Shown piece by piece: positions 4,436 to 62,357 of a stretch of 64,000 nucleotides of DNA. Source of the stretch: Escherichia coli (lineage in GTDB: Bacteria; Pseudomonadota; Gammaproteobacteria; Enterobacterales; Enterobacteriaceae); the NCBI RefSeq assembly GCF_044324875.1, contig NZ_CP172185.1. One strand, 5' to 3'. The number at the start of each line of letters is the position of its first letter. Position 1 is the stretch's first letter. The translations under genes and the position numbers were made by a program. The notes beneath the pieces were generated by a model. The model had not been told where the DNA came from. It worked only from the letters and a program-made list of their open reading frames with translations, and ran no database searches.

Positions 4436-5593
4436 TTACTTCGATGCAGAATCTGCGGGGGTATCGGTAGTGGCTTTAACCTGCTCTCCCGGACGCGCTT
4501 TTTGCAGGCCGCTGACAATGACTTGATCGCCAGATTTCAGACCTTCGCTAATCAACCATTTATCGCCAATCGCCTGACTGGCAACGACAGGGCGCGCTTC
4601 CACCTGACTTTTATCGTTAACAATCAGCACGGTTGCATCACCACGCGGTGTGCGGCTAACGCCTTGTTGCGGGATAAGAATGGCGTCAGGTTGGACGCCT
4701 TCATCAATCCGTGCACGCACAAACATACCCGGCAAAAGCGTATGTTGCGGGTTAGGGAAGACAGCACGTAGGGTTATGGAGCCGGTGCTTTCATCAACGG
4801 TCACATCAGAGAATTGCAGCGTACCTTTCAGGGGATAGGTTTGACCGTTTTCCATGACCAACTCTACGTTGCTGGTGGCGTTTTCCTTATGCAAATTTCC
4901 TTGCTCTACGGATTGCTTCAGCCTCATAAAATCGTTGCTGGATTGGGTCACATCAACGTAGATAGGATCGAGCTGCTGGACAGTCGCCAGTTCAGTCGTT
5001 TGCCCATTAGTGACAAGAGCGCCTTCGGTCACGGTCGATTTGCCGATACGTCCGCTAATTGGCGCAGTCATTTTGGTATAAGCGAGATTGATGAGAGCGC
5101 TTTCGACCGTGGCTTTTGCGGCAATCACGGCGGCATCGGCCTGGCGAGCATCAGCAATGGCCTGGTCGTACTCCTGCTGACTGATGTATTTCGTACCCAC
5201 GAGCGGAACGTAACGTTTTACCGTCAAATGCGCGATGGCGGCGGCGGCTTCACTTTTCGCCAGTTCGCCTTTCGCGCTGTCATAACTTGCCTGATAGGTC
5301 GCGGGATCGATCTGGTACAGGGACTGGCCTGCTTGCACATCGCTGCCTTCAGTGAAATTGCGACTCAGTACGATCCCGCTAACCTGTGGGCGAACTTCGG
5401 CTATACGGTAAGCATTGGTGCGGCCTGGTAATTCAGTCTTAACTTCTAACGGGGCCGTTTTCACAATATGAACGGTAACCTGCGGTTCACCGACGTGAGC
5501 TTTCTCTTCTCCCTTATCGTTACAACCGGCGATTAAAGCCGCGGAGATCAGAATAAAGGAGGGCAGGAGGAAAAACCTGGCATGTTTCGTCAT
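4436..5593 (-). CDS. acrE: Periplasmic adaptor (membrane fusion) lipoprotein AcrE
   Basis: ORF track 4436..5593 (385 aa) [24 protein letters not shown]...; lipobox; 11 bp upstream of acrF. Confidence 0.95.
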
Positions 5594-27139: not shown

Positions 27140-28600
<1,461 letters not shown>

Positions 28601-28646
28601 TAATTTCACTATTTTCAGAAGGATAATTAATCCTTCTACGTGCACG

Positions 28647-28690
28647 AACGGTCCCCTCGCCCCTCTGGGGTTAGGGTGAGGGGAACCCGT
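28647..28690. repeat. G/C-rich imperfect palindrome (REP-like hairpin) between convergent tldD and aaeR
   Basis: acggtcccctcgcccctctggggttagggtgaggggaacccgt; CCCCTC / GAGGGG arms; a related copy occurs after nanA (47323-47357). Confidence 0.5.
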
Positions 28691-28727
28691 TGGCACAGGT
28701 TTGTACAACGTAACAGTATAATATTAA

Positions 28728-29657
28728 TTACTTCTCTTTCCCGCGCCCGTGCATCTCCTGAAACAATTTACCGACCTCAACAAAATAATCCGTCAGCGAG
28801 TTGATCACGACCTGTACCTTCAGCGGCAGCTTATCTTTTTCGGTATATAACGCATAAACCGGGCGTGGATCTGACTGATAACGCGGCAGCAGGATCTCCA
28901 GCTCCCCACGATTGATCTCGTTGATCACCCACATCAGCGGCACGTAGGCGATCCCGGCACCCGCCGTCAGCCAGCGCACCAGCGTCATCGGATCATTAGT
29001 CACAAATCTTCCTTGTGGGATCAGGCGAGTCGAGATCCCTTCCGGTGCGATCAGTTCAAATTCATTGTCGGGCCGCACGCTGTATTCAAGCCATGAATGA
29101 CTACTCAAATCGGCGGGTTTTTCCGGTATGCCGTATTGTGTGAGATAGCTTTTCGCGGCGCACACCACCATCGGCATCGCGCCCAGACGGCGGGAAAACA
29201 GGCTGGAATCCTGCAACGCGCCGACGCGGATCACCACATCCAGACCGTCGGCAATCAGGTCGGGGGCAGGAATTCCGGTAACCAGATTGACGCTCAAACC
29301 TGGGTATTCTTTCAGCATTTTTGCTGTCAGCCCGGCGAGAACATTTTGTGCCATAGTTGAAGAACAGCCAATGCGCAGCGTCCCGATGGGGGTGTTATTG
29401 AAGGCATACAGTTGCTCATGAACATCCTGCACTTCATGGAGCATCCGACGGCAGCCCTGGTAGTAAATTCTGCCGGCTTCAGTCAGGCCAATGCTGCGTG
29501 TACTACGGTTTAACAGCTTTACCTGCAACTCATCTTCCAGTTTTGACACCGTCTGACTGATGGACGAAACGCTCATCTGTAGCTGTCTGGCGGCGGCGGT
29601 AAAAGAGCCAAATTCAACTACTTTGGCAAACACCGACATGCGTTTTAGTCGTTCCAT
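28728..29657 (-). CDS. aaeR: LysR-family transcriptional activator AaeR
   Basis: ORF track 28728..29657 (309 aa) MERLKRMSVFAKVVEFGSFTAAARQLQMSVSSISQTVSKLE (LysR HTH); divergent from aaeXAB. Confidence 0.93.
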   Translation of the reverse strand: MERLKRMSVFAKVVEFGSFTAAARQLQMSVSSISQTVSKLEDELQVKLLNRSTRSIGLTEAGRIYYQGCRRMLHEVQDVHEQLYAFNNTPIGTLRIGCSSTMAQNVLAGLTAKMLKEYPGLSVNLVTGIPAPDLIADGLDVVIRVGALQDSSLFSRRLGAMPMVVCAAKSYLTQYGIPEKPADLSSHSWLEYSVRPDNEFELIAPEGISTRLIPQGRFVTNDPMTLVRWLTAGAGIAYVPLMWVINEINRGELEILLPRYQSDPRPVYALYTEKDKLPLKVQVVINSLTDYFVEVGKLFQEMHGRGKEK

Positions 29658-37066: not shown

Positions 37067-38434
37067 TTAACGCATCAGCAGATAGATGCTTTCATTGCCG
37101 CGTACAATTTGCAGGGCGATGATGGCCGGTTTTGCCGCCAGCACTTTACGCATTTCAGCAATCGAGTTCACCCGATCGCGGTTGACGCCAATGATCACAT
37201 CGTCTTTTTGCAAGCCTGCCTGAGCAGCTGGGCTTCCTTTGACAACCTCATCGATCTTAATACCTTTGCCGCCATCTTTTAGCTGACCATCGCTCAACGT
37301 TGCACCTTCAAGCGCTGGCGTGATCATTTCAGCGCTGGCCGACGAAGAGGTGCTGGTATCGAGCGTCACTTCTACTTCCAGTGGTTTGCCGTTACGCAGC
37401 AGGCCAAGCTTCACTTTCGTGCCCGGCTCGGTGGTTGCGATACGAGAGCGCAACTCAGCAAAGCTATTCAGCGGTTTGCCGTTGAGGCTGGTAATAATAT
37501 CGCCCGCTTTGATGCCCGCTTTTGCCGAGCCAGAACCTGGCAACACTTCGCTGACAAACGCGCCACGCTGCACGTCAAGGTTGAAGGCTTTGGCGATATC
37601 GGCACTCATCTCTGTGCCTTTGATGCCTAACAGACCGCGTTTGATTTCACCAAAGTCGATAAGCTGCTGCGCCAGTGTTCGCGCCATATTACTGGGGATG
37701 GCAAATCCAATCCCGACGCTCCCGCCACCAGGCGCAAGGATTGCCGTGTTGATGCCAATTAACTCACCGTTAAGATTTAACAGTGCACCGCCGGAGTTAC
37801 CGCGGTTAATGGAAGCATCTGTCTGGATAAAGTTTTCCAGACCTTCAAGATTCAACCCACTGCGGCCTAATGCTGACACAATGCCAGAGGTGGCGGTTTG
37901 CCCAAGGCCAAATGGGTTACCGACCGCCACGGCAAAATCACCGACGCGCAATTTATCGGAGTCGGCAATAGCGATTTGCGTTAATTTGCTCGGGTTTTGA
38001 ATTTGCAACAGGGCGATATCGCTCTGGTCATCGCTACCAATCAGTTTTGCATCAAACTCGCGCCCATCATTGAGCTGGATACTGATTTTCTGTGCCTGAT
38101 TAATCACATGGTTGTTGGTAAGCACATAGCCTTTACTGGCGTTGATGATGACACCGGAGCCTAAACCTTCGAAGGGTTGTGCAGGTTGATCCGGTAAATC
38201 ATCACCAAAAAACTTTTTGAATTCTTCCGGGATTTTCTGTCCCTGACTGGCCGTTCCTTCCACCCGTACGCTCACCACTGCCGGAAGCACTTTTTCCAGC
38301 ATTGGGGCCAGACTGGGGAGAGGGGCCTGATCGGCAACCTGGCCTGGAATCGACGCAACGGCCTGAAATGACGCCGAGAGAGTTAACCCGACACTTAACG
38401 CTAATGCACTCAACAGCTGGGTTTGTTTTTTCAT
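37067..38434 (-). CDS. degQ: Periplasmic serine endoprotease DegQ
   Basis: ORF track 37067..38476; start set at MKKQTQLLSALALSVGLTLSASFQAVA (signal peptide; 455 aa); GNSGGAL catalytic motif, two PDZ domains. Confidence 0.95.
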   Translation of the reverse strand: MKKQTQLLSALALSVGLTLSASFQAVASIPGQVADQAPLPSLAPMLEKVLPAVVSVRVEGTASQGQKIPEEFKKFFGDDLPDQPAQPFEGLGSGVIINASKGYVLTNNHVINQAQKISIQLNDGREFDAKLIGSDDQSDIALLQIQNPSKLTQIAIADSDKLRVGDFAVAVGNPFGLGQTATSGIVSALGRSGLNLEGLENFIQTDASINRGNSGGALLNLNGELIGINTAILAPGGGSVGIGFAIPSNMARTLAQQLIDFGEIKRGLLGIKGTEMSADIAKAFNLDVQRGAFVSEVLPGSGSAKAGIKAGDIITSLNGKPLNSFAELRSRIATTEPGTKVKLGLLRNGKPLEVEVTLDTSTSSSASAEMITPALEGATLSDGQLKDGGKGIKIDEVVKGSPAAQAGLQKDDVIIGVNRDRVNSIAEMRKVLAAKPAIIALQIVRGNESIYLLMR

Positions 38435-47322: not shown

Positions 47323-47357
47323 TTCCCCTCGCTCGCCCCTACCGGGTGAGGGGAAAT
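47323..47357. repeat. G/C-rich imperfect palindrome downstream of nanA (same family as 28647-28690)
   Basis: tttcccctcgctcgcccctaccgggtgaggggaaa; shares cccctcgc...cccct...gggtgagggg with the tldD-aaeR element; possible terminator/attenuator between nanA and nanT. Confidence 0.5.
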
Positions 47358-62245: not shown

Positions 62246-62357
62246 CCCCGGCTAGACCGGGGTGCGCGAATACTGCGCCAACACCAGGGAAATCTTGGCT
62301 GCGCCGTAAATTATTATGATGAGTTACAAGGGCACAGCACTGTTTTTCAGGCCGCAC
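62237..62357 (-). ncRNA. arcZ: ArcZ (SraH/RyhA) small regulatory RNA
   Basis: Reverse complement of 62237-62357 reads GTGCGGCCTGAAAAACAGTGCTGTGCCCTTGTAACTCATCATAATAATTTACGGCGCAGCCAAGATTTCCCTGGTGTTGGCGCAGTATTCGCGCACCCCGGTCTAGCCGGGGTCATTTTTT, which matches the ArcZ sequence as I recall it, including its terminator; 3' end overlaps the arcB stop codon. Confidence 0.88.

Follow-up and report, generated by a model that had tools for sequence, protein, structure and literature searches.

The window analyzed here, a stretch of 64,000 nucleotides from the Escherichia coli chromosome, carries the convergent genes tldD and aaeR, and between them lies a G/C-rich element whose conserved flanks and core together span about 57 nt (Table 1). 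The element (28640-28696) reads GTGCACGAACGGT-CCCCTCGCCCC-TCT-GGGG-TTA-GGGTGAGGGG-AACCCGTTGGCAC and forms a strong hairpin on either strand. It is intergenic, with the hairpin 52 nt past the stop of tldD and 44 nt past that of aaeR. The inverted arms TCCCCTCGCCC (28652-28662) and GGGTGAGGGGA (28674-28684) are 91% complementary. A 61-nt stretch around the element folds at -34.4 kcal/mol on the plus strand (z = -3.0; equalled by 1 of 200 shuffles) and at -31.3 kcal/mol on the minus strand (z = -3.0; equalled by 4 of 200). The original prediction had described a G/C-rich imperfect palindrome at this place, and the palindrome stands; its 43-nt string occupies 28648-28690, so that the start first given for it, 28647, was one base early. 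Within the window, the 31-mer core of the element occurs once (chance expectation 0), the arm signature CCCCTCRC..GYGAGGGG occurs twice (0 expected), the second time at 47325-47353 between nanA and nanT, and GGGTGAGGGG occurs twice (0.06 expected). The A/T-rich hairpin that precedes the element lacks a T run and was kept in every tldD-aaeR allele examined.

Table 1. Features of the window and of related loci. Coordinates are those of the window unless another locus is named.
Feature	Coordinates	Strand	Remarks
tldD	27155..28600	+	RefSeq annotation, identical genomes
A/T-rich hairpin AGAAGGAT-AATTA-ATCCTTCT	28617..28637		Perfect 8-bp stem, 17 nt past the tldD stop, just 5' of the BoxC unit
BoxC left flank GTGCACGAACGGT	28640..28652	+	Fits consensus GYGCAC..ACGGTC; pairs with the right flank (outer stem); alignment with 10 K-12 copies and nhmmer match
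C-rich block CCCCTCGCCCC, 5' hairpin arm	28653..28663	+	Equals the C block of type A 'mm' copies, Holder Table 1
First loop TCT	28664..28666	+	TTT in the K-12 orthologue; TCT found in other K-12 copies
GGGG, remnant of first G block	28667..28670	+	GGGGTGAGGG in K-12; the 6-nt deletion (TGAGGG) maps here, as a 6-column gap in the profile alignment
Second loop TTA	28671..28673	+	Defines type A (HPG1)
Second G block GGGTGAGGGG, 3' hairpin arm	28674..28683	+	
Right flank AACCCGTTGGCAC	28684..28696	+	GAA is family-conserved; CCGTT and GCAC pair with the left flank
aaeR	28728..29657	-	RefSeq annotation, identical genomes
nanA-nanT hairpin TTGTTTCCCCTCGCTCGCCCCTACCGGGTGAGGGGAAATAA	47319..47359	+	Arm motifs only in common with BoxC
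ArcZ sRNA gene	62250..62357	-	Full-length Rfam match, 120.8 bits
133 allele, core			CCCCTCGCCCC TTT GGGG(A/T)GAGGG TTA GGGTGAGGGG; four G tracts
127 allele, core			CCCCTCGCCCC TCT GGGG TTA GGGTGAGGGG; three G tracts
121 allele, core			CCCCTCGCCCC TCT GGGG TTA GGGG; two G tracts
ISEc13 in BoxC, EPEC1 tldD-aaeR	L102 134..1702		
ISEc13 in BoxC, E2348/69 zntA-tusA	L101 251..1819		

The element belongs to a family that is already known under several names. A family profile (nhmmer) was built from nine K-12 type A copies, with the orthologous tldD-aaeR copy left out, and it matched the window at 28639-28685 with E = 1.4e-12; the match runs from position 2 to position 54 of the 55 in the model and contains a single gap of six columns. 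When the window element and the K-12 copies were aligned, they had in common a 36-nt core, the left flank GYGCAC..ACGGTC and GAA on the right. The canonical unit consists of this left flank, the C block CCCTCGCCCC, a 3-nt loop, GGGGAGAGGG TTA GGGTGAGGGG and GAA. At the same place K-12 MG1655 carries CCCTCGCCCCTTTGGGGTGAGGGTTAGGGTGAGGGG, and its spacer reads ACGAACGGTC-CCCTCGCCCC-TTT-GGGGTGAGGG-TTA-GGGTGAGGGG-AACCCGTTGG. This K-12 site (3,390,494-3,390,529) is listed as TMECO no. 14, type A 'mm' (Holder 2015 Table 1, PMC4666352), and as HPGQ 37 at aaeR/tldD, group HPG1 (Kaplan 2016 Table 1, PMC5100583). TMECO, in turn, is equated both with BoxC, a palindromic repeat known from the 1990s, and with the PIT element that Hoyne and Maher described (Holder 2015, PMC4666352). 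For BoxC of Bachellier et al., later papers give a length of 56 bp and 32-33 annotated copies in K-12. Both the family and the exact locus have therefore been published before, and there is nothing new in the identity of the element.

A 49-nt query taken from the window element had matches in 5425 of 5426 E. coli genomes. The median number of places was 15 per genome (range 2-25), and a genome identical to the window at the tldD-aaeR locus had nine. The small dispersed repeat family proposed in the original prediction was thus borne out, with typically far more than two places per genome and conservation across strains, and comparison with described enterobacterial repeat families gave BoxC as the match. 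BoxC can be described as a dispersed intergenic repeat of about 56 nt in Escherichia and Enterobacter. A short motif containing GCAC flanks the core on both sides in about half of the examined copies, at a distance of about 9-13 nt on the left and 9-14 nt on the right; it may belong to the unit or to the target site.

Most parts of the unit were recognized in the window. The C-rich stretch of the published motif (CCCTCNCCC, followed by a loop of 3-6 nt) is present as CCCTCGCCC(C) at 28654-28663 followed by TCT, the second loop TTA is followed by a second G block of the form GGGTGAGGG, and GTGCACGAACGGTC and GAA are both found in the flanks. Like BoxC of Bachellier, the window element is an imperfect, G/C-rich, intergenic palindrome of a dispersed sequence family, present in multiple copies. 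It is the positional orthologue of TMECO no. 14; the C block, the TTA loop and the last G block are the same in both, and its stem still has the G.T mismatch by which 'mm' is defined. With HPGQ 37 it shares the aaeR/tldD locus, the TTA middle loop and the hairpin state. However, compared with the canonical unit, the window allele is short by 6 nt and has lost the first G block (GGGNGAGGG), of which just GGGG is left. It thus fails the TMECO pattern CCCTCNCCC N3-6 GGGNGAGGG N3 GGGNGAGGG, so that no three-strand fold is possible, and it has three G3+ tracts, whereas HPG1 requires four (loops of 1-7 nt), which makes the canonical G-quadruplex state unavailable. 'Mutated' or degenerate TMECOs in other strains have been described in general terms (Holder 2015, PMC4666352).

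Membership in other families was also considered. The original prediction had set the element apart from canonical REP, rightly: no palindromic unit of the GCCGGATG..CTTATCCGGCCTAC type is present in it, and real REP units at other loci are unrelated in sequence. REP/BIME and BoxC are alike in being short palindromic intergenic repeats transcribed in 3' regions, and REP occupies the same tldD-aaeR spacer in Salmonella and Citrobacter and adjoins the zntA-tusA BoxC in one strain. We know of no RAYT transposase and no binding protein such as IHF or gyrase associated with BoxC. An Rfam scan of the window returned no family at gathering score besides ArcZ, and at a permissive threshold the best hit at the element was a chance match to Antizyme_FSE (E = 0.16). 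A weak profile match at 38306-38340 was set aside as chance, since it falls within a coding ORF and does not form a hairpin.

The shortened form is one of a series of alleles. Compared with K-12, six bases (TGAGGG) are gone from the G-rich arm of the window element, leaving three G tracts. Matches to the 171 bases around the element were obtained in 5425 of 5426 complete E. coli genomes; the BoxC element itself was found at tldD-aaeR in 5421. Spacer lengths were taken from an evenly spaced sample of 60 of the 5421 matching genomes: the spacer measured 127 nt in 31 (126 nt in one of these), 133 nt in 22 and 121 nt in six, and one was interrupted by an IS, which corresponds to allele shares of about 52, 37 and 10% for the 127, 133 and 121 forms. 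Two further variants were seen, one of them decayed and the other with a 1-nt deletion. The published G-quadruplex rule and the TMECO pattern are matched by the 133 allele alone; the K-12 and O157 alleles have four tracts. Alleles unable to form a triplex or G-quadruplex made up about 63% of this systematic 60-genome sample. The hairpin energies of the 133, 127 and 121 alleles were -36.1, -34.4 and -34.0 kcal/mol as RNA and -17.4, -18.1 and -17.0 kcal/mol as DNA, and the fold of the decayed allele (GPT21) reached just -27.8 kcal/mol. Given the three blocks of the family consensus, the simplest view is that the long form is ancestral and that the short forms arose by deletion between GGGNNA repeats; the direction, deletion as against duplication, and the mobility rest on this comparison with the family consensus. 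At zntA-tusA, the length of the BoxC copy is constant nearly everywhere, and its variants are REP/BIME or IS insertions. As this copy has no comparable length variation, the series at tldD-aaeR does not reflect a general hypermutability of the family.

The window holds a further hairpin of similar appearance. The original prediction had named a second copy of the element after nanA, TTCCCCTCGCTCGCCCCTACCGGGTGAGGGGAAAT at 47323-47357 between nanA and nanT, and its arm signature is real, as counted above; CCCCTCGC and GGGTGAGGGGAA are in common with BoxC. Its membership in the family was not supported. The nanA-nanT hairpin has no ACGGTC flank, carries a TCGC duplication and has a single G block, the BoxC profile reached only E = 0.32 over 12 nt, and the search that gave 15 places for the tldD element gave a median of one place per genome for this hairpin. 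Identity reached 99% or more in 5374 of 5408 genomes. The missing flanks, the profile score and the single copy speak against a BoxC copy; the hairpin may be an old relative of BoxC, and we advise against including it among the copies. The fold has an energy of -27.2 kcal/mol in the sense direction (z = -5.0) versus -18.8 kcal/mol in antisense (z = -1.6), and this strand asymmetry would suit an intercistronic element of the nanATEK operon that works at the level of RNA. The hairpin has no T run behind it, and no 3' end is listed after nanA (Adams 2021, PMC7815308).

We compared the tldD loci of 80 species with respect to the tldD-aaeR spacer, and found that structured repeats have commonly landed in it. 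In Enterobacter cloacae (DSM 26481, L030 5460-5553), a full TMECO lies on the minus strand 16 nt past the tldD stop, with the same GCACGGAGCAGTC flank, and a second, degenerate type B unit lies on the plus strand, giving a head-to-head BoxC-like pair. The other Enterobacter species examined do not have this pair, which suggests an independent insertion into the spacer. REP-like units occupy the spacer in Salmonella diarizonae, Citrobacter and Pseudocitrobacter, and plain hairpins or terminators occupy it in many other species; no TMECO was found at any further locus of the 80-species set. Simple CCCTCT..AGAGGG hairpins were observed right after tldD in several genera (L027, L029, L031 and L035, at about 5450-5490), for example CACCCTCTTTGCGCAAAGAGGGTG in Kosakonia. 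They resemble the BoxC stem minus the extra G block and could be hairpin-only remnants or unrelated terminators.

An empty site that would define the unit ends or a target duplication was looked for in E. albertii, in other genera, at adk-hemH and at zntA-tusA, and was not found in these. Homology between E. albertii (L018, 5444 onward) and E. coli stops exactly at the tldD stop, with no aaeR within 4 kb, and the place where E. coli has BoxC is thus a synteny breakpoint. The tldD-aaeR spacers of other genera are unrelated. BoxC at adk-hemH (spacer compared as L099 476-640 versus L098 476-606) is absent from about 46% of E. coli genomes, including E. coli 536, in which about 58 nt of other sequence replaces a K-12 segment of about 160 nt that holds both BoxC and the mapped adk terminator. 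These are alternative spacer haplotypes and not a simple insertion, and adk-hemH was rejected as a clean filled/empty pair.

BoxC was also observed as a target of ISEc13, a 1550-bp IS4-like element whose ends resemble those of Tn5. In EPEC E2348/69, ISEc13 lies inside BoxC at two loci in opposite orientations, with the target-site duplications (TSDs) CTGGGGTT and CGCTCCTCT. Ten more copies in CP148541.1 (L103-L112) all lie in palindromes composed of CCC(C)T, an 8-9 bp TSD and AGGG(G), where the flanks of two recombined copies were re-paired. Most of these ten targets are the apical loops of terminator-like hairpins, and a further BoxC is among them. A stem of at least five pairs centred on the TSD was present at 10 of the 12 ISEc13 sites, versus 26% of random positions (binomial P = 5e-5). 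ISEc13 thus inserts into BoxC and other CCCT-N8-9-AGGG palindromes. Among eight papers found to mention ISEc13, once each, none has it as a topic by title or abstract.

In this study, we concluded with a probability of roughly 80% that the tldD-aaeR hairpin is the window strain's shortened copy of BoxC, a neutral or selfish remnant that is transcribed through and is not a terminator. Based on the allele series, we propose a plausible course of events. One hexamer would have been lost from the G-rich arm, likely by slippage between GGGNNA repeats, a step that we infer, and one G block has stayed. The remnant is a stable imperfect hairpin on either strand, with about 11 G/C-rich pairs extended by pairing of the flanks, and no longer matches the three-block triplex and four-tract G-quadruplex patterns. 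It would be transcribed within the 3' regions of tldD and aaeR without stopping RNA polymerase, as the K-12 data suggest for the longer allele, and in K-12 the read-through from tldD is ended by Rho further downstream, within aaeR in antisense. Most likely, the element is a selfish or neutral repeat remnant without a dedicated function at this site, and its effects, if any, would be those common to stable hairpins in a 3'-UTR. In published work, the genes neighbouring copies of the family fall into no functional class.

It has to be considered whether the hairpin is instead kept by selection at the RNA level, as a 3'-UTR barrier to 3'-to-5' exonucleases for both mRNAs or as a buffer between converging polymerases, for which BoxC would have been co-opted. 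REP hairpins play such roles elsewhere. The hairpin is stable on both strands, its energy is kept across the 133, 127 and 121 alleles though the triplex and G-quadruplex potential is gone, it is present at this locus in nearly every E. coli genome searched, and in other genera its position is taken by a different hairpin, by a REP unit or by a terminator. The near-equal energy of the three alleles could accordingly reflect selection for the hairpin instead of neutrality, and a hairpin may be needed at this place, given that the element is near-fixed in E. coli and that most other Enterobacteriaceae have some hairpin there. However, deletion of a hexamer in a periodic G arm keeps the hairpin automatically, so that selection is not needed to explain the constant energy, and the decayed GPT21 allele persists with a much weaker fold. 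Furthermore, no stable 3' end was detected at the element in K-12, and no functional association was found for the family. We therefore regard maintenance by selection as unlikely on our analysis.

The original prediction held that the elements probably act as terminators or attenuators; a Rho-independent terminator or attenuator at this place would serve tldD and/or aaeR. A G/C-rich hairpin between convergent genes invites this reading, and the E. coli spacer has no other obvious terminator, but of the three marks of such a site, a G/C-rich hairpin, an immediately following U tract and a mapped 3' end, the element has the hairpin only. The hairpin is followed by AACCCGTTGG on the plus strand and by ACCGTTCGTG on the minus strand, neither of which is a U tract, and terminator and promoter scans called nothing at the element or at the nanA-nanT hairpin. 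No Term-seq 3' ends are listed at K-12 3,390,400-3,390,599 (Adams 2021, PMC7815308), where the transcript data describe K-12 with its 133 allele rather than the 127 allele, and the expression of tldD may be too low for Term-seq to register. Downstream of the element, a Rho termination region is placed at 3,390,148 (-), on the tldD strand and antisense to aaeR, with a Rho score of 5.99 and a significance of 5.5e-18, its position being approximate as 800-nt windows were used (Adams 2021, PMC7815308). The supplements of the SMRT-Cappable-seq and TERMITe papers contain no ends for tldD or aaeR.

Other copies of the family speak against termination as well, since transcription of adk and fimH runs past their own BoxC copies. 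For adk, which is well expressed, the 3' end at 497,939/40 follows a canonical terminator 60 nt beyond BoxC (497,843-878), and no 3' end is listed at BoxC itself; past the BoxC copy at fimH-gntP there is again a Rho region, in antisense to gntP (PMC7815308). As related by Holder 2015 (PMC4666352), direct tests of PIT elements by Maher and colleagues detected neither promoter nor terminator activity and no effect on RNA polymerase. A terminator or attenuator role is thus very improbable, and the reading as a BoxC remnant that is transcribed through is preferred.

Least probable of all, with hardly any chance of being right here, is that the element acts as non-B DNA or RNA in the manner proposed for TMECO and HPG1, through an intrastrand triplex or a G-quadruplex-hairpin-duplex switch: the motif gave hairpins and G-quadruplexes by circular dichroism, as reported in Kaplan 2016 (PMC5100583), triplex formation was demonstrated in vitro and TMECO loci vary more between strains than control loci (Holder 2015, PMC4666352), but in vivo DMS footprinting showed no triplex protection (Holder 2015, PMC4666352), and the window allele, with one G block and three G tracts, fails both published patterns, like the alleles of most sampled genomes. 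Judged from its sequence, the window allele is excluded from both the triplex and the G-quadruplex state.

A more speculative thought, to which we give little weight, is that the hairpin rather than the non-B structure is the selected feature of BoxC here, for example as a two-way protector of 3' ends between convergent genes. If this were true, the long search for a function of BoxC was aimed at the wrong structure. For the family as a whole, the allele series at tldD-aaeR calls for caution with genome-wide surveys of G-quadruplexes and triplexes that are based on K-12, since nearly two thirds of the sampled E. coli genomes carry alleles at this locus that are incapable of forming either.
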